This document shows positions 4,408-53,678 of a DNA stretch of 64,000 nt, in pieces (the stretch's first letter is position 1; every line of letters starts with the position of its first letter). Below the pieces are notes generated by a model that was given only the letters and a program-made list of their open reading frames with translations, did not search any database and was not told the origin of the DNA. Made by a program: the position numbers and the translations under genes. The stretch lies in the NCBI RefSeq assembly GCF_058153355.1, contig NZ_CM177019.1; one strand, written 5' to 3'.

Positions 4408-4512
4408 TCCATGCCATATGCGGCGCGAACGCCTTATACGGCCTACAAAAGTTTGCAAATTCAATAAATTGCAGAATTCATGTAGGCCTGATAAGCGAAG
4501 CGCATCAGGCAT
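4408..4512. repeat. REP/BIME-type extragenic palindromes
   Basis: Motifs such as gcggcgcgaacgccttatacggcctac and gtaggcctgataagcgaagcgcatcaggc match the E. coli REP consensus. Confidence 0.75.
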
Positions 4513-9486: not shown

Positions 9487-9577
<91 letters not shown>

Positions 9578-19629: not shown

Positions 19630-21024
19630 TCAGAAGAAGTATTTAAAGCGAACGCGTGCGCCGTAACGGTCATCAGTATCATCACCGTGTTTTTTATCAC
19701 CGTCGCTATCCAGAATGGAGTAATAAGTACCAAGGTAAATATTAAAGTTCTCCATATCCATCACATTAGCGAACTGATAAGACGCATGAATGGTGTGAAT
19801 GGTGTACGTCCCTTCATCATCAATCCAGCAGTCGTTATCACAAACTACACCGCTGAATTCATCAATCTTATTGTGCGCGTAGATATAACCCAGCTCGAAA
19901 CGTTTCCACAGCGCGTTAATCCCGGCAGTGAAATCTTTTTCATTATTAGCATCTAAATAGGCGGTATTAAGATTAACCACGACGCCATTTTCCGGATCCG
20001 TTTTCAGGCCATTCCAGGTCATGCTCATACCATAGCCGGTACGATCGGACTGATCGACAAAATTACCCTTGCTATCGGTATAACCATAAGCATTATTTAC
20101 TACGTTCGCTTCCATCGCTGCGGAAACGGTGAATTCTTCCGTCGGCGACCAGGCAATTACCGGACGCAGATAAGCAACATTTTTCTGCTGCTTCATATCG
20201 CGTCCATGATAATTACCGTCATTATATAAAGATGTTCCGTCTTCAAGTAACGTGTTTAATTCAAAATACCAGTTATCGAGTTGTTTGCTGACGAGGAAAT
20301 TACCGCCAGCGTTAGAGCGCCCGCGGCCCTCTTTCATCATATAGATATAACCGCTGCCATCGTCATAAAGATCGTTCGCAGTATTACCGGAATGTTCAAC
20401 AAAGGTATCCTGATTCAGCGGGAACATATCGTAGGCTTCAAAACGGCCTACTTTGACCTTCCAGTCGTTTTCTTTGCCAAAGAAGAATACCGCATCATCG
20501 ATATTTACTGAACCGTGCATATCCCCCAGCGGTTGTGCGGAGAACCCGGCGAAATAACCATTATCCAGTTTTCGCATACCATCAAAACCTAACAGAATAC
20601 GACCATTGAGATTCCACTGTTCATTAGTGGGATCGCTATTCACATCAGCGTTGGTCATTGCCAGCAGGCCATGATTACTTTCCGCATCCATATTAAATTC
20701 TACGTCGCCGTAGATTTTTAAATCGCCATAACCTGAAAGCAAAAGATTAGGTGAGGTGGCATTTTTCTTTGCAGATTCCGCCGTTGTCTGTCCATTTACC
20801 GGCGTATTGCCCTGGGCAGCCTTAATTTCGCGGATCTCAGCGGCTTGTTGTGTCTGCAGCTGTTTTACCTGCCCCTCTGCTTTTGCTGCCCGCATTTCTG
20901 CCGCTTCCAGGCGTTCTTCCAGCAATGCCATGCGTTGTTCCAGCGTTAAATGCTGTGTTTTTGCCATTCCGGTACTACATGCCAATAATAAACCGATGGC
21001 TAAAGATAATGTCGATTTTTTCAT
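19630..21024 (-). CDS. outer-membrane carbohydrate-porin-like protein with N-terminal coiled-coil extension (ScrY/BglH-like architecture)
   Basis: 464 aa; signal peptide MKKSTLSLAIGLLLACSTGMA, then a heptad-like region (LEQRMALLEERLEAAEMRAAKAEGQVKQLQTQQAAEIREIKAAQ), then an aromatic-rich barrel-like region ending in C-terminal Phe (..RFKYFF). Confidence 0.7.
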   Translation of the reverse strand: MKKSTLSLAIGLLLACSTGMAKTQHLTLEQRMALLEERLEAAEMRAAKAEGQVKQLQTQQAAEIREIKAAQGNTPVNGQTTAESAKKNATSPNLLLSGYGDLKIYGDVEFNMDAESNHGLLAMTNADVNSDPTNEQWNLNGRILLGFDGMRKLDNGYFAGFSAQPLGDMHGSVNIDDAVFFFGKENDWKVKVGRFEAYDMFPLNQDTFVEHSGNTANDLYDDGSGYIYMMKEGRGRSNAGGNFLVSKQLDNWYFELNTLLEDGTSLYNDGNYHGRDMKQQKNVAYLRPVIAWSPTEEFTVSAAMEANVVNNAYGYTDSKGNFVDQSDRTGYGMSMTWNGLKTDPENGVVVNLNTAYLDANNEKDFTAGINALWKRFELGYIYAHNKIDEFSGVVCDNDCWIDDEGTYTIHTIHASYQFANVMDMENFNIYLGTYYSILDSDGDKKHGDDTDDRYGARVRFKYFF

Positions 21025-21500
21025 TATTTACGTTCCCTGAAATAAAAGATACCCTACGCTTTCCAAAAGGAATACGTATATAGAGAAATATAAGGTGTGC
21101 ACTTTCGAATTTTTAATCCAACTTCAGCAGGCCGATGGATAGTATCCCGCTGCATAATATGAGTAAATCCGCTGATTTCCTGGAACGTGAGGAATATAAC
21201 AATAGTGCCGTTTTTAACTAAATATCGTAAAAAATATTAGATATAATTCACGCTGACTCATAAGCCACAAATATAAATAACCTTGCTGCAAAATATGTGC
21301 GGCAGTTAAACATTCACAACATCATTAAATAATGATTTTTTATTCACTGCATTTATTTTTCCCATCAATATGTGCCTTACACCGCAAAATTTATCCTTCA
21401 CTCTGCCTTATATTGTCACGACTTCACGACATATCCGCGCTCATCACAAAACCGCCCCGCCGTTACAATTAACTATAATATTTTTTCATGGAGTCCAATA

Positions 21501-29945: not shown

Positions 29946-32900
29946 ATGCAGGTCAGCAGAAGGCAGTTCTTTAAGATCTGCGCTGGCGGTATGGCAGGCA
30001 CCACGGCAGCGGCACTGGGTTTTGCACCCAGCGTAGCACTCGCGGAAACCCGGCAGTATAAACTGCTGCGCACCCGCGAAACCCGTAATACCTGCACCTA
30101 TTGTTCCGTAGGCTGTGGGCTGTTGATGTACAGCCTCGGTGACGGAGCAAAAAACGCCAAAGCATCTATCTTCCATATCGAAGGTGACCCGGATCACCCG
30201 GTCAACCGCGGTGCACTTTGTCCCAAAGGCGCTGGCCTGGTGGATTTCATCCACTCCGAAAGCCGTCTGAAGTTTCCGGAATACCGTGCCCCTGGTTCTG
30301 ATAAATGGCAGCAAATCAGTTGGGAAGAGGCGTTTGATCGCATTGCCAAACTGATGAAAGAAGACCGCGATGCTAACTACATTGCGCAAAACGCCGAAGG
30401 CGTGACTGTTAACCGCTGGCTCTCCACCGGGATGCTGTGTGCTTCCGCGTCGAGTAACGAAACCGGCTATTTAACGCAAAAATTCTCCCGCGCGCTGGGT
30501 ATGCTCGCGGTCGACAACCAGGCGCGTGTCTGACACGGACCAACGGTAGCAAGTCTTGCTCCAACATTTGGTCGCGGTGCGATGACCAACCACTGGGTCG
30601 ACATCAAGAACGCCAACCTCGTCGTGGTGATGGGCGGTAACGCCGCTGAAGCTCACCCGGTCGGGTTCCGCTGGGCGATGGAAGCCAAAATTCACAACGG
30701 CGCGAAGCTGATTGTGATCGATCCTCGCTTTACGCGTACGGCGGCGGTGGCTGACTACTATGCCCCTATTCGTTCCGGTACTGACATTGCTTTCCTGTCA
30801 GGCGTATTGCTGTACCTGCTGAACAATGAAAAATTCAACCGCGAATACACCGAAGCCTATACCAACGCCAGCCTGATCGTGCGTGAGGATTACGGCTTTG
30901 AAGATGGCCTGTTCACCGGCTACGACGCGGAAAAACGCAAGTACGATAAATCCTCCTGGACCTACGAGCTGGACGAAAACGGCTTCGCCAAACGCGATAC
31001 CACGCTGCAACATCCGCGCTGCGTGTGGAACTTGCTGAAACAGCACGTTTCCCGTTATACGCCAGATGTGGTTGAAAACATCTGTGGCACGCCGAAAGAC
31101 GCGTTCCTGAAAGTCTGCGAATACATCGCAGAGACCAGTGCTCACGATAAAACTGCCTCGTTCCTTTACGCGCTCGGCTGGACGCAACACTCCGTTGGTG
31201 CGCAGAACATTCGTACGATGGCGATGATCCAGCTACTGCTCGGCAATATGGGGATGGCAGGCGGCGGCGTTAACGCCCTGCGCGGTCACTCCAACATTCA
31301 GGGGCTGACGGACCTGGGGCTGCTGTCGCAGAGCCTGCCAGGTTACATGACGCTGCCAAGCGAGAAGCAGACCGATCTGCAAACCTACCTTGCCGCCAAC
31401 ACGCCAAAACCACTGCTGGAAGGCCAGGTTAACTACTGGGGCAATTACCCGAAATTCTTCGTCTCCATGATGAAGGCCTTCTTTGGTGATAAAGCGACGG
31501 CAGAAAACAGCTGGGGCTTTGACTGGTTGCCGAAGTGGGATAAAGGCTACGACGTCCTGCAATACTTCGAGATGATGAAAGAGGGCAAGGTCAATGGCTA
31601 TATCTGCCAGGGCTTTAACCCTGTTGCCTCATTCCCGAACAAAAACAAAGTGATCGGTTGTCTGTCGAAACTGAAGTTCCTCGTCACTATCGACCCGCTG
31701 AACACTGAAACCTCTAACTTCTGGCAGAACCACGGTGAGCTGAACGAAGTGGACTCGTCGAAGATCCAGACCGAAGTGTTCCGTCTGCCATCGACCTGCT
31801 TCGCGGAAGAGAACGGTTCAATCGTTAACTCCGGTCGCTGGTTGCAGTGGCACTGGAAAGGTGCGGACGCCCCAGGGATTGCGCTGACTGATGGCGAGAT
31901 CCTCTCCGGTATCTTCCTGCGCTTGCGCAAGATGTACGCCGAACAGGGTGGCGCGAACCCGGACCAGGTGCTGAACATGACCTGGAACTACGCCATCCCG
32001 CATGAGCCGAAGTCGGAAGAAGTGGCGATGGAGAGCAACGGTAAGGCGCTGGCCGATATTACCGATCCGGCAACCGGGGCGGTTATCGTCAAGAAAGGCC
32101 AACAACTTAGCTCGTTCGCCCAACTGCGCGATGACGGTACCACCTCCTGTGGCTGCTGGATTTTCGCCGGTAGCTGGACGCCAGAGGGCAACCAGATGGC
32201 ACGCCGTGATAACGCCGATCCGTCTGGCCTCGGTAACACGCTGGGCTGGGCATGGGCATGGCCGCTTAACCGCCGCATTCTGTATAACCGCGCCTCCGCA
32301 GATCCGCAGGGTAACCCGTGGGATCCGAAGCGTCAGTTGCTGAAATGGGACGGCACTAAGTGGACCGGCTGGGATATTCCGGACTACAGCGCAGCGCCTC
32401 CGGGCAGTGGCGTCGGGCCGTTTATCATGCAGCAGGAAGGCATGGGGCGTCTGTTTGCTCTCGATAAGATGGCGGAAGGTCCGTTCCCGGAACACTACGA
32501 GCCGTTTGAAACGCCGCTGGGAACTAACCCACTGCATCCAAACGTTATCTCGAACCCGGCTGCGCGAATCTTTAAAGACGATGCCGAAGCATTGGGTAAA
32601 GCCGATAAGTTCCCGTATGTCGGAACCACCTATCGTCTGACCGAGCACTTCCACTACTGGACCAAACACGCGCTGTTGAATGCGATTTTGCAGCCAGAGC
32701 AGTTTGTGGAAATCGGGGAGTCGCTGGCGAATAAACTTGGCATTGCTCAGGGCGATACCGTGAAAGTCTCCTCCAACCGTGGCTATATCAAAGCCAAAGC
32801 GGTGGTGACCAAACGTATTCGTACGCTAAAAGCGAACGGCAAAGATATCGATACCATCGGTATTCCGATTCACTGGGGCTATGAAGGTGTTGCGAAAAAA

Positions 32901-32996
32901 GGCTTTATTGCCAATACGTTAACGCCATTCGTTGGTGATGCGAACACGCAGACGCCGGAGTTTAAGTCCTTCCTTGTGAATGTGGAAAAGGTGTAA
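29946..32996 (+). CDS. fdoG: formate dehydrogenase-O catalytic subunit (selenoprotein; in-frame UGA at 30531..30533 read as selenocysteine)
   Basis: Tat signal (RRQFFKICAGGMAGTTAAALGFA); the 195-codon ORF ends at TGA and the same frame continues as the 804-aa ORF at 30582, because (30582-29946) is divisible by 3. Molybdopterin oxidoreductase motifs throughout. Confidence 0.93.
30534..30580 (+). promoter_or_regulatory. probable SECIS stem-loop directing Sec insertion at the fdoG UGA
   Basis: Hairpin-capable sequence (..ggtagcaagtcttgctcc..) directly 3' of the UGA. Fold not computed. Confidence 0.5.
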
Positions 32997-48412: not shown

Positions 48413-48466
48413 GCTGAATCTCCCGTCCAAAAGCGCAAATCATGCCATGCAGGCCGGAAACGGCCA

Positions 48467-48494
48467 TTATCTAAAACCTCGGTTTACAGGAAAC
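48467..48494. repeat. gix recombination site (gin-proximal)
   Basis: ttatctaaaacctcggtttacaggaaac; inverted relative to the copy at 51540..51566. Confidence 0.8.
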
Positions 48495-48537
48495 GGTAAA
48501 CAAGGCTGGTAACGCTGTTCAAAAGACAGGTGATACC

Positions 48538-49503
48538 TTGTCCGGTGGACTTACTTTTGAAAACGACTCAATCCTTGCCTGGATTCGAAATACTGACTGG
48601 GCAAAGATTGGGTTTAAAAATAATTCGGATGCAGACACCGATTCCTACATGTGGTTTGAAACAGGCGACAACGGCAATGAATATTTCAAATGGAGACACC
48701 ACCTCACTGGCGGCCGGGTTAAAGACCTGATGAATCTTAAATGGGATGCTCTGTATGTTCTTGTGAAAGCCCTTTTCAGCAGTGAAGTGAAAATATCGAC
48801 AGTCAATGCACTGAGGATATTTAATTCATCTTTTGGTGCCATTTTTCGTCGTTCTGAAGAATGCCTGCATATCATCCCTACACGAGAGAATGAGGGGGAA
48901 AATGGTGATATAGGGCCACTACGCCCCTTTACGCTTAATCTCAGAACTGGCCGGATAAGCATGGGGCATGGTCTTGATGTTACAGGGGATATATTTGCAA
49001 ACCGTTTTGCAATTAACAGTAGTACCGGCATGTGGATTCATATGCGTGACCAGAATGTTATTCTGGGCCGTAATGCGGTATCCAACGATGGTGCGCAGGC
49101 ATTGCTTCGCCAGGACCATACCGACCGTAAATTCGTAATTGGTGGGCTGGGGAATAAGCAATTTGGCATCTACATGATTAATAACTCAAGGACAGCCAAT
49201 GGCACCGATGGTCAGGCGTACATGGATAATAACGGTAACTGGCTTTGTGGTGCGCAAGTTATTCCCGGCAATTATGGCAATTTTGACTCCAGATATGTGA
49301 AAGATGTCCGGCTTGGCTCACAGCAATATTATGGTGTGAATAACTGGCAAACATGGAATTTCCAGTGCCCGTCAGGCTATGTACTGACGGGGATTAACGT
49401 ACAGGATACCGGAAAAAACTCTGCCGATAATATTGCAGGCGTTCATTACAGGCCAGTGCAAAAGTATATAAATGGCACCTGGTATAATGTGGCGAGTATT
49501 TAA
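48538..49503 (+). CDS. alternative tail-fibre variable segment (Sv'), silent in this orientation
   Basis: C-terminus (..[19 protein letters not shown]) parallels that of S; lies inside the invertible segment on the opposite strand. True 5' boundary is the gix site. Confidence 0.7.
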
Positions 49504-49504
49504 T

Positions 49505-50032
49505 ATGATGCACTTAAAGAACATAAAAGCGGGTAATGCTAAAACACCAGAACAGTATGAGTTAACAAAGAAACACGGAGTTATCTGGCTTTACTCTGAG
49601 GACGGAAAAAACTGGTATGAGGAAGTGAAGAACTTTCAGCCGGATACAATAAAGATTGTTTACGACGAAAATAATATTATTGTCGCCGTCACTAAAGATG
49701 CCTCCACGCTTAATCCTGAAGGTTTTAGCGTCGTTGAAATCCCCGATATAACAGCTAACCGTCGTGCCGATGATTCAGGGAAGTGGATGTTTAAGGACGG
49801 AGCGGTGGTCAGGAGGACTTATACAGCAGACGAACAGCAGCAACAGGCCGAATCACAAAAGGCCGAGTTACTTTCCGAAGCTGAATCAGTCATCCAGCCG
49901 CTGGAACGCGCTGTCAGGCTGAATATGGCAACAGACGAGGAACGCACACGACTGGAAGCATGGGAACGCTACAGTGTTCTGATCAGCCGTGTGGATACGG
50001 CAAAGCCCGAATGGCCACAAAAACCTGAGTAA
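49505..50032 (+). CDS. alternative tail-fibre assembly protein U'
   Basis: About 175 aa, paralogous to U (both begin MMHLKNI.AGN...[19 protein letters not shown]). Confidence 0.75.
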
Positions 50033-50060
50033 AAATTAAGGCCCGATATCGGGCCTTCTC

Positions 50061-50594
50061 TCATTCTGGTTGTTCGGGAAACGTTACTGGCAGGCTGGAG
50101 GTGTCTGTGGATTCGACCTTCTGCGCATAGAGCATCCACTCGGTTAATTTTTGTTTATTCTCGTCGGAAATAATGCCCAGCCGTAGCTGTGAGTCCCACA
50201 GCTGGGTTTTATCCCTGACGAGCTGTAGCAGGCTTTGCTTTTCATTTTCCGCTTGTTGCCTCTGCTCTTCCCCGGTATAAGTTCGCTTTATCACTACGCC
50301 ATCTTTGAACATCCATTTACCTGAAATATCAGCCCGGCGATTTGCTGTAATATCAGGAACCTCAACGACGCTTGCGCCTTCCGGATTAATTGCTGAAACA
50401 TCCTTTTCAATACAAATAATAACGCCGTTGTGGTCATAGACCATTTTCAACGTATCAGGCTGAAAGTTCTTTTGTTCCTCATACCAGTTTTTCCCATCCT
50501 CTGTATAAAGCCATTTGATGTTAAATTGCTTTGTTAGCTGGTATTGCTCTTTTGTTTCAGGATTACCAGCAGAAATGTTTTTTAAGTGCATCAT
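50061..50594 (-). CDS. U: tail-fibre assembly protein U
   Basis: 177 aa directly after S on the same strand. Confidence 0.78.
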   Translation of the reverse strand: MMHLKNISAGNPETKEQYQLTKQFNIKWLYTEDGKNWYEEQKNFQPDTLKMVYDHNGVIICIEKDVSAINPEGASVVEVPDITANRRADISGKWMFKDGVVIKRTYTGEEQRQQAENEKQSLLQLVRDKTQLWDSQLRLGIISDENKQKLTEWMLYAQKVESTDTSSLPVTFPEQPE

Positions 50595-50596
50595 CG

Positions 50597-52063
50597 TTAA
50601 ATACTCCCCGCGTTATACCACGTCCCATTAATGCAATACTGAACTGGCCTTGCCTGAGTTGTATCAATTAGTTCATCTCTGTTTGAGTTAACGGAACCGG
50701 TAACAACATAACCTGACCTGTCAGACCAGCCGGGACCATTCCATGTCTGAACAGATGACAGACCACCAAGGCGAATACCTGTAATAAACCTTGAGTTACA
50801 TTCTGCCTGCGTATATGCGCCAACATCTCTCGCTGATGGCTTGCGTGTTGTGGTGTAAAACTCTGACCAGCCAGCCTCAAATCCATAACCATCACGCGCT
50901 GAACGATAAAAAATACCGCCGTTCCTGTAATTCACACGGAACTGTACGGCAGGGCAACTCCCCGTATTCATATTGAAGTGGAGGATTAATGTTGTTGCGC
51001 CACCAATATTTGCGTTATAGACCCCGCTATTCCAGTTCCAGCCAACGGCTTTGTCGTTTCCGACGGTATTTCCTGTTTGCCCTAAAGCAAATGCAGGCTG
51101 CTGGTTTTTCGTGTTGTAGTCTCGTCGCCAGCCAGGAGCGTAAGCATCACCATGATTAATATAAGTGAATTGAGCGTTAGTGATTCCGCCGCCGCTGGAC
51201 GTGCCCGGCGTGGTAACGCGTATGGTCATTGCGCCGCGGGTGCCAATAACTTCCACCACAGCACCTGCAAGACAAATATTTCCGCAACCTGTATCTGTAA
51301 TGACCTTATTATTTGCATAAGCCCATGAGCCTTTGCACATCCAGTAAGGATGGTTAAATGCTCCCTGACTCTCCAGCCACGAAATAAATTGCGCAGTTGT
51401 CCAGACCTGACTATCGCCACCAATATCCACCCATGCGCTATATGCGCGACAGGCACCAATATTTTTGGTGAAGGTATCTTTTCCTGGAATATCTGCGCCG
51501 TTCTGGTTTTTCTGTAATGCGCCAGAAGCCTGATTTACCGTTTCCTGCAAACCGAGGTTTTGGATAAACAGCGGCTTATTGGGAATATCTGCTCCGTTCC
51601 GGTCTTTTGCCAGACGGGCATTGGCATTATCCATCGCAATTTTCACCGCTTTTGCGGTGGCTGCCAGCGTTTCACTGGGGCTGTCAGTGGCACTGGTTAG
51701 CTGAACGAGTCCTTTTTTGTTCAGGCTGGCATCATAGATATCCAGATTTTCACGTGCTGTACGCTGTGCTGATGCCCCGGCAGTTTTAATTTCGCTGAGG
51801 TTATTTTTTATCAGCAGCGCGTTCTTGTTCATGATGGCTTTAATGGACAGTGCAAGCTGGTTTAATTTTGTTTTATCCGGTTGAATACCGGCTTCTTCCA
51901 GCGTGTTTAATAACTCCGCCTGCACAATATTAAACCAGTCCATGCCGGGCCATGTGATAACATTATTCCCGTCACCTTCTGAAAACCAGCGAACGATAGC
52001 ACTACGCTTGGCGGATACGGGCGGCATGACGGTTACGCCGCTGTCGTTATCAATATAAAACAT
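50597..52063 (-). CDS. S: tail fibre protein S (constant part outside, variable part inside the G segment)
   Basis: 488 aa; the ORF crosses the gix site at about 51540..51566, so the G segment is in the S-U expressing orientation. Confidence 0.78.
   Translation of the reverse strand: MFYIDNDSGVTVMPPVSAKRSAIVRWFSEGDGNNVITWPGMDWFNIVQAELLNTLEEAGIQPDKTKLNQLALSIKAIMNKNALLIKNNLSEIKTAGASAQRTARENLDIYDASLNKKGLVQLTSATDSPSETLAATAKAVKIAMDNANARLAKDRNGADIPNKPLFIQNLGLQETVNQASGALQKNQNGADIPGKDTFTKNIGACRAYSAWVDIGGDSQVWTTAQFISWLESQGAFNHPYWMCKGSWAYANNKVITDTGCGNICLAGAVVEVIGTRGAMTIRVTTPGTSSGGGITNAQFTYINHGDAYAPGWRRDYNTKNQQPAFALGQTGNTVGNDKAVGWNWNSGVYNANIGGATTLILHFNMNTGSCPAVQFRVNYRNGGIFYRSARDGYGFEAGWSEFYTTTRKPSARDVGAYTQAECNSRFITGIRLGGLSSVQTWNGPGWSDRSGYVVTGSVNSNRDELIDTTQARPVQYCINGTWYNAGSI
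51540..51566. repeat. gix recombination site (distal), inside the S gene
   Basis: gttcctgcaaaccgaggttttggataa, inverted copy of 48467..48494 with a few mismatches. Confidence 0.8.
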
Positions 52064-52605
52064 TAGTTATCTCCGTCATGGTAAACAAATTTATAAATCT
52101 GATGTGCGGGTTTATATTTCTCCAGTAAACATTCCAGTGCACCCGATTCATAAACACGTAACGGCGTCAGAACATTATCCAGCACCGTTGCGTTGCGATA
52201 ATTTTTAATACCGTAAATATTGACCTGCGTAACCCACTGGCCTTCTGTGGAATCCGTCAGTCTGACGGTAAAACCGTACTGCGCAGCCAGCCATTCATAA
52301 AAGCGCCGACTCAGATTGCCGGTCATACGCATTTTATTTGCGGCAGCCCGCTGGCGTTCGGACAGGGTGCCGTTTTCGCTTGTACAGTCCGGCAACCCCA
52401 GAAATGATTCCCACTCCCTCAGATACCAGCGGGATGTGGACGGGAAACGCTCCCGCAGCATTTGCCGCGCATCATCCGCCGCAGTGGCAATCACATCGCT
52501 GATGGCCTGCGCCAGCGCAGATAATTTGCTGTCGGGGCTTTTATTCCAGGCAAGCCCTGACGGCAGTAATTGCAGAAAGGCAGCCTGATACGGTGTTACA
52601 GCCAT
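52063..52605 (-). CDS. Mu-type baseplate/tail protein (gp48-like)
   Basis: 180-aa ORF in the late tail block, by position. Confidence 0.6.
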   Translation of the reverse strand: MAVTPYQAAFLQLLPSGLAWNKSPDSKLSALAQAISDVIATAADDARQMLRERFPSTSRWYLREWESFLGLPDCTSENGTLSERQRAAANKMRMTGNLSRRFYEWLAAQYGFTVRLTDSTEGQWVTQVNIYGIKNYRNATVLDNVLTPLRVYESGALECLLEKYKPAHQIYKFVYHDGDN

Positions 52606-53678
52606 TCAATTGTCCCCGGTGTTAACAGTTCCGTATTCTCCGAACGCCGGATCTCTGTCGGGAAACGCACTTCAAAATCATCCAGACCGGTAACACCTGC
52701 CACCGCACGGATAATACGGGAGGGGGCAAGTGTGCCGCCCGGCGTCACTTCATTAAAAAACATGGTATTAATGGCGTGGGTAATAGCCTGTTTCAGTTCG
52801 ACAGTCTTCGGTGATATATAAATCCGTGGATTTACCGGCTTTGCCTTTGGCGCAAATACCGTGACATTTACACCGTCAGGCTGTCCGACAATCAGGCCGG
52901 TTATCGGGTCAGTATGACCGGCGATATAATCCGCCACGCGTTCCACATCTGCCGGTTGTGGAAAAATATTGCTCCGGTTATCCATAACAAACGTCACCCC
53001 GACTGTGCCACCGCCTTTCCATGCCGGAAAACACCAGGCACGGGTAACGCCGCTGACTTCACGCGCCCAGCGAACATAATCAAACTGATTACCGCCGAAC
53101 GGAGGATACTGGACACGATATTCCAGCCGTGACAGCAGCTCCGCTGCACTCTCAATATCAGCCCCACCGGAAAACCCTTTTACAGTGATGGCATCGGAAA
53201 CAACACAGGCAACCGGGGTGATCAACGTTAAAAGGGTATTCTCACCGGTATTTCCTGCCTCACCGGCAGCCAGTGCGGTAACGGTAATTTCCGTCGTTCC
53301 TGCACGGCCAATCACAATGGCATCAGCCAGACTGTAAACCACACCATCAGCACGCTGCCAGCGTGTACCGGCAGGAATGGTGGTCGCTGCCGATGTGGTG
53401 ACAGTCAGCGGGCCGCTGGCGGCTGTCGCCTGTTTGCGGCGCACGCCCCAGAACCGGCAGTGCTCCAGCAACTCATCTTCATCTGCTGTCGACGGGATAA
53501 TCTGCCGTCCAACCCATGAAATATGCTCGTGACAACCGGCAGCAAGGCCCGCCTGAGCATAAGCAATGGCACTCAGCGTTTTTTCACGGGCCTGAGGCCA
53601 GCTACCCGGCAGGCGCTGTTCAATATTCTGTTCTGTACGGGCAATCAGCGATGATAATGTCGGTGGTGAATAAGCCAT
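52596..53678 (-). CDS. baseplate J-like wedge protein (Mu gp47-like)
   Basis: 360-aa ORF, position in tail module. Confidence 0.6.
   Translation of the reverse strand: MAYSPPTLSSLIARTEQNIEQRLPGSWPQAREKTLSAIAYAQAGLAAGCHEHISWVGRQIIPSTADEDELLEHCRFWGVRRKQATAASGPLTVTTSAATTIPAGTRWQRADGVVYSLADAIVIGRAGTTEITVTALAAGEAGNTGENTLLTLITPVACVVSDAITVKGFSGGADIESAAELLSRLEYRVQYPPFGGNQFDYVRWAREVSGVTRAWCFPAWKGGGTVGVTFVMDNRSNIFPQPADVERVADYIAGHTDPITGLIVGQPDGVNVTVFAPKAKPVNPRIYISPKTVELKQAITHAINTMFFNEVTPGGTLAPSRIIRAVAGVTGLDDFEVRFPTEIRRSENTELLTPGTIEWL

Follow-up and report, generated by a model that had tools for sequence, protein, structure and literature searches.

The window, a 64,000-nucleotide (64 kb) stretch of an E. 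coli chromosome, covers 17 kb of a ~37-kb prophage. Its Muvirus features comprise the right end, com-mom, gin, a G segment, and tail and baseplate genes in Mu order, and Pfam matches were obtained for Mom, Com and Gp48. The right end of the prophage lies between yihS and yihR of the E. coli chromosome: the terminal sequence TGAAGCGGCGCACG at 46787, which is identical in Mu and SfMu, abuts the yihS-yihR spacer. The host flank, aligned over 4.3 kb, matches three of four E. coli chromosomes at 98.3–99.0% and the fourth at 94.9%. The query for the junction gave 90–95% identity in most E. coli genomes, which at first pointed to a host of another species; the flank alignment led us to reject this, the lower values being due to a variable yihS-yihR spacer and to allelic variation. 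YihS occurs in thousands of blocks of the gene-position collection, and this served only to identify the host as E. coli. None of the complete E. coli genomes searched carries a prophage at this junction. Rfam and tRNA scans returned nothing within the prophage part of the window.

Gene content of the segment

The segment has a size of 3.07 kb, is flanked by gix repeats, contains two convergent tail-fibre cassettes and is adjoined by an intact gin gene. It starts at 48467, as proposed in a preliminary description of this DNA, while the end given there, 51566, is one base short and should be 51567. The boundaries lie in an inverted repeat of 58 nt (48467–48524 and 51510–51567) that is 79% complementary, and the first 34 bp of this repeat are the gix sites. 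The ORF map indicates a split tail-fibre gene: the constant part lies beyond the segment boundary, the two alternative variable parts lie within the segment, and each variable part has a separate assembly gene downstream.

The constant N-terminal fibre part, Sc, occupies 51556–52063 on the minus strand and overlaps at its start with the stop codon of gp48 (52063–52605, minus strand), which was identified by its Pfam Phage_Mu_Gp48 domain. The ~169 first residues of Sc differ from Mu at three positions only (K19, N79 and K80). In line with the preliminary description, the S ORF of 488 amino acids (50597–52063, minus strand) reads continuously across the distal gix. Its residues 113–153 match a Phage_fiber_2 repeat, and its variable part extends from 50597 to 51553. 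An assembly gene of 177 amino acids (50061–50594, minus strand; Pfam Caudo_TAP, E = 7e-37) follows. The second cassette runs on the plus strand and consists of a variable fibre part (48481–49503), which, read in the fusion frame, has no separate start codon, and an assembly gene of 175 amino acids (49505–50032; Caudo_TAP, E = 3e-36). This cassette is silent because it has neither a promoter nor the N-terminal coding part.

A G+C-rich palindromic hairpin (50038–50057) separates the convergent cassettes in the middle of the segment; its fold energy is −17.6 kcal/mol (z = −4.6), and it is conserved in Mu, SfMu and a prophage of E. coli W. It coincides with a terminator-like match, AAGGCCCGATATCGGGCCTT followed by AATTTTT on the minus strand, and probably serves as a terminator.

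The gin gene (47819–48412, minus strand), assigned by Pfam and by comparison with Mu Gin, encodes a serine DNA invertase of 197 amino acids and has a GTG start as in Mu. The protein is 97% identical to Mu Gin, from which it differs by K39R, T184A and a C-terminal extension of four residues, and a single residue separates it from SfMu Gin. Residues 1–193 match the Gin crystal structures 3uj3 and 4m6f, the catalytic Ser9 is present and the YVRVS motif is intact. Inactivation of gin, which the preliminary description had named as an objection to its own reading, was not seen, as the gene is full length and encodes both the Resolvase (E = 2e-50) and HTH_7 (E = 2e-17) domains. The G segment and gin appear intact.

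Type of the expressed and silent cassettes

The preliminary description placed the segment in the S/U-expressing orientation. The generic layout alone, in which the S ORF spans the distal gix and an assembly gene comes next, would suit such a G(+) state, with orthologues of Mu S and U being expressed to form an E. coli K-12-type fibre. Comparison of the proteins themselves, however, overturns this assignment. The complete expressed S protein matches Mu S′ at 97.1% and SfMu ORF49 at 97.1%, compared to only 48.2% for Mu S. The corresponding values for the assembly protein are 97.7% for Mu U′, 100% for SfMu ORF50 and 56.5% for Mu U, so that the gene that had been noted after S on the same strand is indeed there, but is of the U′ and not the U type. 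The lengths of the two ORFs, 488 and 177 amino acids, are those of Mu S′ and U′, whereas Mu S and U have 504 and 175. When compared to known structures, the expressed fibre matched the chain of PDB entry 8ju3 (‘Tail fiber protein S′’) from end to end with 1089 bits, while the match to 5yvq (‘Tail fiber protein S’) was restricted to residues 1–248. The window must moreover be inverted to become colinear with the Mu G(+) record, and we give a G(+) state practically no credence.

The silent cassette belongs to the other type. It had been described as an Sv′/U′ cassette on the opposite strand and adjoining gin; its place and strand are correct, but its type is Sv/U, with values of 76.4% and 89.1% to Mu S and Mu U, respectively. 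The silent U matches Mu U′ at 55.9%. The C-terminal 166 amino acids of the silent fibre match SfMu at 95.8%, a P2-like record at 88.6% and Mu S at ~70%. Judged from these sequence comparisons, the state is G(−), with S′/U′-type genes forming the expressed cassette and a diverged S/U type the silent one, because the expressed fibre and its chaperone match Mu S′/U′ and colinearity with Mu G(+) needs inversion. The locus is thus very probably an invertible G segment belonging to a prophage of the Mu family that resembles SfMu, and the orientation in which it now lies is the one named G(−) in Mu.

In silico inversion of 48479–51555 produces an uninterrupted S ORF of 510 amino acids, with the 175-amino acid gene following 1 nt later. 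The resulting fibre matches its SfMu equivalent at 95.7% and, over the full length, Mu S at the 76.4% given above; it also matches PDB entry 5yvq from end to end. The earlier proposal that Gin would join constant S to Sv′ holds insofar as the fusion is open, but the part joined is of the Sv type. A frameshift at the Sc-Sv or Sc-Sv′ junction, likewise named as an objection, is absent, and both fusions are uninterrupted.

Recombination sites and the capacity to invert

The gin-proximal gix is oriented on the plus strand (34-bp repeat 48467–48500; 26-bp site 48467–48492), with the crossover dinucleotide TC at 48479–48480. The distal gix, located within the S ORF, is oriented on the minus strand (34-bp repeat 51534–51567; 26-bp site 51542–51567), with its crossover dinucleotide at 51554–51555. 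The two 34-bp sequences, TTATCTAAAACCTCGGTTTACAGGAAACGGTAAA and TTATCCAAAACCTCGGTTTGCAGGAAACGGTAAA, match at 32 of 34 positions and share the TC dinucleotide; the mismatches at positions 6 and 20 bear out the remark that the copies differ at a few positions. A search with the 26-bp Mu gix, allowing ≤3 mismatches, returned only these two sites in the 64 kb and none in 100 shuffles. Each 26-bp site is one mismatch away from the Mu gix, and the two lie in inverted orientation with a TC core in both. Compared to Mu, the gin-proximal copy carries the single substitution C6T in the outer half-site, which is common to SfMu, and the distal copy the single substitution A20G in the inner half-site, which is linked to the Sv′ flank. 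The gix copies of Mu, unlike those of the window, are identical to each other.

The first 110 nt of gin (48303–48412, minus strand) are 100% identical to Mu, and we infer that this candidate region contains the Fis-dependent recombinational enhancer. Three 15-mers resembling the Fis consensus are located at 48377–48391, 48365–48379 and 48305–48319, all of them identical in Mu, and the homologous stretch of cin (nt 19–86) is annotated as an enhancer in the P7 record AF503408. The first candidate Fis site lies ~96 bp from the gix centre; the corresponding enhancer distance in the Hin system is ~100 bp (PMC3798978). The 60-bp spacer that separates gix from the start codon of gin carries 12 substitutions relative to Mu. 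A σ70 promoter scan of 46700–52700 gave fewer matches than shuffles and nothing that could be used as a gin promoter.

The gix mismatches at positions 6 and 20 and the 12 substitutions in the spacer, which includes the gin promoter and ribosome-binding region, could also be read as signs that the prophage retains the Mu architecture but has lost inversion, or inverts very rarely, and is locked in the S′/U′ state. The proposed cause would be the substitution in each gix copy or poor expression of gin. A precedent comes from SfMu, for which equal host ranges of induced and infection-grown lysates led the authors to propose impaired inversion, possibly reduced or absent (PMC4406740). That suspicion, however, hinged on C12G beside the crossover in the distal gix, a substitution that the window does not have. 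Positions 6 and 20 correspond to core positions 8 and 7, at which every base is fully tolerated in the Gin specificity profile, a profile obtained with an activated catalytic domain fused to zinc fingers and hence with the native helix-turn-helix recognition outside the assay (PMC3616721). Natural gix sites have C, T or A at position 6. The crossover dinucleotides are identical, gin is intact with the 5′ end of Mu, and both ORFs of the silent cassette are still open, which argues against long-term disuse. A recombinant gix that combines T6 and G20 exists, furthermore, in IMG/VR contigs. We consider a switch locked in this way quite unlikely. By their sequences, the window’s own gix variants appear compatible with inversion. 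A smaller possibility is that the asymmetric pair might favour one of the two states at equilibrium, given that one substitution travels with the segment while the other stays put.

In the two IMG/VR contigs, L005 and L008, T6 and G20 occur together in the gin-proximal gix, and the Sv′ flank adjoins gin. The Sc-side gix of L005 is perfect as well, and on sequence L005 has precisely the arrangement of gix sites that inversion of the window should yield. The contents of the cassettes in both contigs partly differ from those of the window. We rejected L005 as the same prophage in flipped form, since its match is confined to the gix sites and 20–60 bp of inner flank and the interiors of the cassettes are different. 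In the E. coli W assemblies NC_017635 and NC_017664, by comparison, a related prophage is 100% identical over 11,593 bp once the region between the gix centres is inverted. At a coverage threshold of ≥80%, 11 of 5,426 complete E. coli genomes have the Sc-Sv′ junction as it stands in the window, and 23 have the inverted-type junction. The E. coli W pair and these counts are evidence that segments of this kind do flip in nature, and for the window itself they bear on inversion only indirectly.

The window is a single consensus sequence and hence shows one orientation. It could be that the sequenced culture was a mixture of the two orientations, of which only one entered the assembly, in which case the orientation in the window would be biologically uninformative. 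This view is favoured by the E. coli W assemblies, which give opposite orientations for a prophage that is identical in all else, and by the knowledge that Mu lysogens carry both states (PMC4406740); we put its chances at about even. It is, however, compatible with the assignment to G(−), and merely limits what is meant by the current orientation. At this locus, two assemblies of one strain can legitimately disagree, E. coli W being an example.

Expression and switching of the segment may be envisaged as follows. Late transcription of the tail operon would proceed on the minus strand from gp47 through gp48 into S, where the distal gix lies at the junction of Sc with the Sv′-type part, and on into the U′-type chaperone gene, probably ending at the central hairpin (50038–50057). 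According to the Gin and Hin literature, from which the next steps are taken, Gin dimers would bind the two inverted gix sites and assemble into an invertasome on negatively supercoiled DNA, with host Fis occupying the enhancer at the 5′ end of gin. Ser9 would then cut all four strands at the central TC/GA dinucleotide, one pair of subunits would rotate by 180°, and religation of the ends would leave 48479–51555 flipped. After the switch, Sc would be in frame with the Sv-type part, giving the 510-amino acid fibre, with the U-type chaperone encoded downstream. The receptor-binding tip would be swapped in this way, and the host range altered. Inversion in this strain, its rate and the hosts recognised by each fibre are matters that we infer.

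Relatives and host range

The G-segment/Gin switch of Mu has since 1980 been a textbook example of programmed DNA inversion. Mu G(+) particles have E. coli K-12 as host, and G(−) particles have E. coli C, Citrobacter, Enterobacter, Serratia, Erwinia and Shigella sonnei. The choice of orientation label is of consequence, since different hosts are predicted for the two states. In annotation, S′/U′ type, G(−), is the appropriate label for the expressed fibre instead of S/U, and this changes the predicted target bacteria.

The closest described relative is phage SfMu (NC_027382/KP010268). Its G region, orf49–52 and gin, is colinear with the window as it stands, with 97.2% nucleotide identity over 7,414 bp, and the remaining prophage within the window is 96.8–99.2% identical, with colinearity reaching the window’s end. 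C6T in the gin-proximal gix, the diverged Sv type (95.7%) and an arrangement of the G(−) type are common to both, and their U′-type proteins are identical; SfMu is likewise described as G(−)-equivalent in its paper (PMC4406740). They differ in host, SfMu residing in S. flexneri 4a and the window prophage in E. coli between yihS and yihR, in the distal gix (C12G in SfMu, A20G here) and at 14 residues of the expressed fibre. A stretch of the window, 62444–62989, has no SfMu alignment. The locus is an already known system, and it is mechanistically nothing new because the copy is 97% identical to that of a published phage.

Eighteen residues separate SfMu ORF49 from Mu S′. At nine of these the expressed fibre has the SfMu state and at nine the Mu state, and beyond them it has five residues of its own. 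An exact-sequence look-up in the gene-position collection found neither the expressed S (488 amino acids) nor the inverted S (510 amino acids) nor the silent U (175 amino acids). We tentatively raise the rather improbable idea that the S′-type fibre now expressed is a naturally occurring intermediate of Mu S′ and SfMu ORF49, and that the host-range pair of this prophage is absent from both Mu and SfMu. The S′-type fibre of SfMu uses the O-antigen of S. flexneri (PMC4406740). If the idea is true, the fibre could be of help in locating, among the 18 residues, those that change recognition from an LPS-core glucose to the O-antigen of Shigella flexneri.

Mu itself (AF083977) gives one alignment of 7,435 bp at 92.8%, obtained only after in silico inversion of the window. 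Both have the gene order gp48, Sc/gix/Sv-U/U′-Sv′/gix/gin, com, mom, and they have in common the 34-bp gix with TC core, the 5′ end of gin, the central hairpin and the length of Sc up to the crossover. The Mu reference record is in the G(+) state, in contrast to the G(−) of the window, and the Sv-type part of the window matches Mu Sv at only ~65–70% in the variable region and tip.

Two further inversion systems are more distant. The C segment of P1 and P7 contains homologous Sv/U cassettes (~87–90% at the nucleotide level over parts of the segment), and its invertase Cin is homologous, with an enhancer in the 5′ end of the gene. However, the cix sites are distinct, cin is transcribed toward the segment, Sc is much longer, the segment is larger (~4.0 kb in the P7 record), and P1 and P7 are plasmid prophages rather than transposable phages. 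The H segment of Salmonella, with Hin and hix, employs the same mechanism, an invertasome with Fis and an enhancer, and a recombinase of the same subfamily (PMC3798978). Hin, however, flips a promoter and thereby switches flagellin genes, whereas the segment described here is coding and swaps an exon-like C-terminal part of the fibre.

Organization of the inversion locus

On the − strand, gp47 (52596–53678) is followed by gp48 (52063–52605; Pfam Phage_Mu_Gp48), by the tail-fibre gene S (50597–52063; 488 aa), which spans the distal gix, and by the assembly gene of the expressed cassette (50061–50594; 177 aa; Caudo_TAP). The + strand carries an alternative variable part (48481–49503), whose fusion frame has no stops, and the assembly gene of the silent cassette (49505–50032; 175 aa; Caudo_TAP), and gin (47819–48412; Resolvase and HTH_7 domains), com (47548–47736) and mom (46902–47627) lie beyond on the − strand. 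The ORF map bears out the preliminary description, in which S crosses the distal gix and precedes an assembly gene on its own strand, and a second variable cassette (48481–50032) adjoins gin on the opposite strand. A palindromic G+C-rich hairpin between the convergent cassettes (50038–50057; fold energy −17.6 kcal/mol, z = −4.6) is kept in Mu, SfMu and the E. coli W prophage. Because the T-run, on the − strand, follows the hairpin on the S′/U′ side alone, the two cassettes may differ in how strongly they are terminated.

The segment is bounded by the arms (48467–48524 and 51510–51567) of a 58-nt inverted repeat, which extends one base beyond the end first assigned to the segment (51566); the initial 34 bp of each arm form gix. 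A search of the whole window with the 26-bp Mu gix, allowing up to three mismatches, returned exactly these two sites, and no match in 100 shuffles of the window. The gin-proximal copy, TTATCTAAAACCTCGGTTTACAGGAAACGGTAAA, adjoins the recombinase gene, while the distal copy, TTATCCAAAACCTCGGTTTGCAGGAAACGGTAAA (− strand reading), lies within the tail-fibre ORF. They share the central TC dinucleotide and are identical at 32 of 34 positions, in keeping with the few differences already remarked upon. Both Mu copies are perfect, whereas each copy in the window departs from Mu at one position: the gin-proximal gix has C6T in its outer half, as does that of SfMu, and the distal gix has A20G in its inner half. 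The distal gix of SfMu (L001, 4748–4781), in contrast, has C12G beside the crossover, which the window lacks.

Two defects named in advance as arguing against a working switch, a frameshift at the Sc-Sv or Sc-Sv′ junction and a mutated gin, were not found. When 48479–51555, between the crossover dinucleotides, was inverted in silico, S remained uninterrupted (510 aa, against 488 aa as is) and the 175-aa assembly gene started 1 nt past its stop; both junctions are therefore in frame. Gin is full length and matches Gin crystal-structure chains over residues 1–193. One residue sets it apart from SfMu Gin, and K39R, T184A and four additional C-terminal aa from Mu Gin; its GTG start codon is that of the Mu annotation. 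The first 110 nt of gin, 100% identical to Mu, correspond to the annotated enhancer of P7 cin (nt 19–86) and contain Fis-consensus-like 15-mers, with the same sequence in Mu. From the gix centre to the first 15-mer is ~96 bp, comparable to the ~100 bp of the Hin system (PMC3798978). Between the proximal gix and the gin start codon (48413–48466), ~55 bp differ from Mu by 12 substitutions, and the adjacent 110 nt of gin by none; the putative promoter and ribosome-binding region has thus diverged far more than the start of the coding sequence, with its putative enhancer.

Expressed cassette and host range

The Mu reference (AF083977) is G(+): its S has 504 aa and its U 175 aa, and of its silent parts Sv′ would give an S′ of 488 aa and U′ has 177 aa. 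The expressed proteins of the window have 488 and 177 aa. The former is 97.1% identical to Mu S′, 48.2% to Mu S and 97.1% to SfMu ORF49, and the latter 97.7% to Mu U′, 56.5% to Mu U and 100% to SfMu ORF50. Expressed S matches PDB 8ju3 (‘Tail fiber protein S′’) end to end (1089 bits), and its match to 5yvq (‘Tail fiber protein S’) is limited to residues 1–248; S inverted in silico gives the reverse pattern, end to end on 5yvq but not on 8ju3. The unmodified window forms a single 7,414-bp colinear alignment with SfMu (97.2%), the G segment of which corresponds to Mu in the G(−) orientation (PMC4406740). Mu G(+) aligns with the unmodified window with its G segment in reverse, and with the inverted window as a single 7,435-bp alignment (92.8%). 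Lengths, identities, PDB chains and colinearity all indicate that S′/U′ is expressed, and cassette comparison places the segment in the G(−)-equivalent state. The preliminary description thus holds for architecture and mechanism; its label ‘S/U-expressing’ does not.

The silent cassette adjoining gin is of a diverged S/U type. Inverted S is 47.8% identical to Mu S′, 76.4% to Mu S and 95.7% to SfMu, and the silent assembly protein 55.9% to Mu U′, 89.1% to Mu U and 95.4% to SfMu. For the C-terminal 166 aa of the silent variable part the values are 95.8% with SfMu, 88.6% with a P2-like record and about 70% with Mu S.

The sequence features of the inversion system are present in the window, and its chemistry is taken from the family literature (PMC3575834; PMC3798978). 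Gin dimers would bind the two gix sites and, with a Fis-bound enhancer in the gin 5′ end and negative supercoiling, would form an invertasome; Ser9 of each subunit would cleave at the central dinucleotide, and a 180° subunit rotation with religation would invert the segment, so that Sc and the late promoter would be followed by the other Sv and U pair. E. coli K-12 is infected by Mu G(+) particles, and the S′-type fibre of SfMu makes use of the O-antigen of S. flexneri Y/3b (PMC4406740). At the 18 sites where SfMu ORF49 and Mu S′ differ, the expressed fibre has the SfMu state at nine and the Mu state at nine, and a further 5 residues are unique to it. The fibre is thus a mixture whose hosts are not predictable from sequence. 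The system is a known one, in a close relative (about 97% at the nucleotide level) of a described phage.

Evidence for inversion

C6T and A20G fall at positions 8 and 7 of the 20-bp Gin core numbering, where the activated Gin catalytic domain accepts every base; its constraints lie only at positions 6-4 (A/T), 3-2 (CC, CG, GG, TG) and some crossover dinucleotides (PMC3616721). For SfMu, impaired inversion was suspected from C12G (PMC4406740). That substitution makes positions 3-2 CG, one of the four tolerated combinations (PMC3616721), and the SfMu segment may therefore be invertible after all. The assay used zinc-finger fusions and leaves native helix-turn-helix recognition aside, a gap that natural gix variation helps to fill.

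An exact IMG/VR search for the G20 inner half-site with its Sv′ flank found four contigs. In two (L005 and L008), a T6 gin-side half-site and the G20 half-site make up one gix, with Sv′ adjoining gin, the configuration predicted for the inverted window; the Sc-side gix of L005 is perfect. As exact twins of the window both were rejected, their cassette interiors being partly different.

E. coli W shows inversion of such a prophage directly: in two assemblies of this strain (NC_017635 and NC_017664), one Mu-like prophage occupies the same place with its G segment (at about 294.4–297.5 kb) in opposite orientations, and once this segment is inverted in silico at the gix centres, all 11,593 compared bases are identical. 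One of these assemblies annotates the silent variable part as a pseudogene (‘phage tail protein, incomplete’). Among 5,426 complete E. coli genomes, at a coverage of at least 80%, the window's Sc-Sv′ junction occurs in 11 and the inverted-type junction in 23.

Prophage and chromosomal surroundings

The Mu right end (TGAAGCGGCGCACG…) starts at 46787, in the short yihS-yihR spacer (junction region 46748–46800) and 39 bp past the stop of yihS. The insertion splits yihU-yihT-yihS from the downstream genes yihR and yihQ of the sulfoquinovose catabolism cluster. The flank matches three of four E. coli chromosomes at 98.3–99.0% and the fourth at 94.9%; this junction is free of a prophage in all complete E. 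coli genomes of the collection, and the exact S (as is or inverted) and silent U proteins have no record in the gene-position collection. About 17 kb of the roughly 37 kb prophage is visible, colinear with SfMu to the window end (96.8%, then 99.2%) except at 62444–62989. This stretch (~545 bp) does not align with SfMu and corresponds to SfMu 20953–21495, in the orf36/37 head-tail region, already noted as unlike Mu (PMC4406740).

In the host part, a large gene was split by the ORF finder at an in-frame TGA (29946–30533, then 30582–32996), exactly where Rfam places a SECIS_3 element (30528–30586). The gene (29946–32996) encodes a selenocysteine-containing formate dehydrogenase α subunit and is probably fdoG; the ORFs that follow (300 and 211 aa) fit fdoH and fdoI. 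Rfam gathering-level matches were also obtained for naRNA4, a nucleoid-associated, REP-derived RNA (9494–9571), and for the sRNA ES036 (4448–4489).
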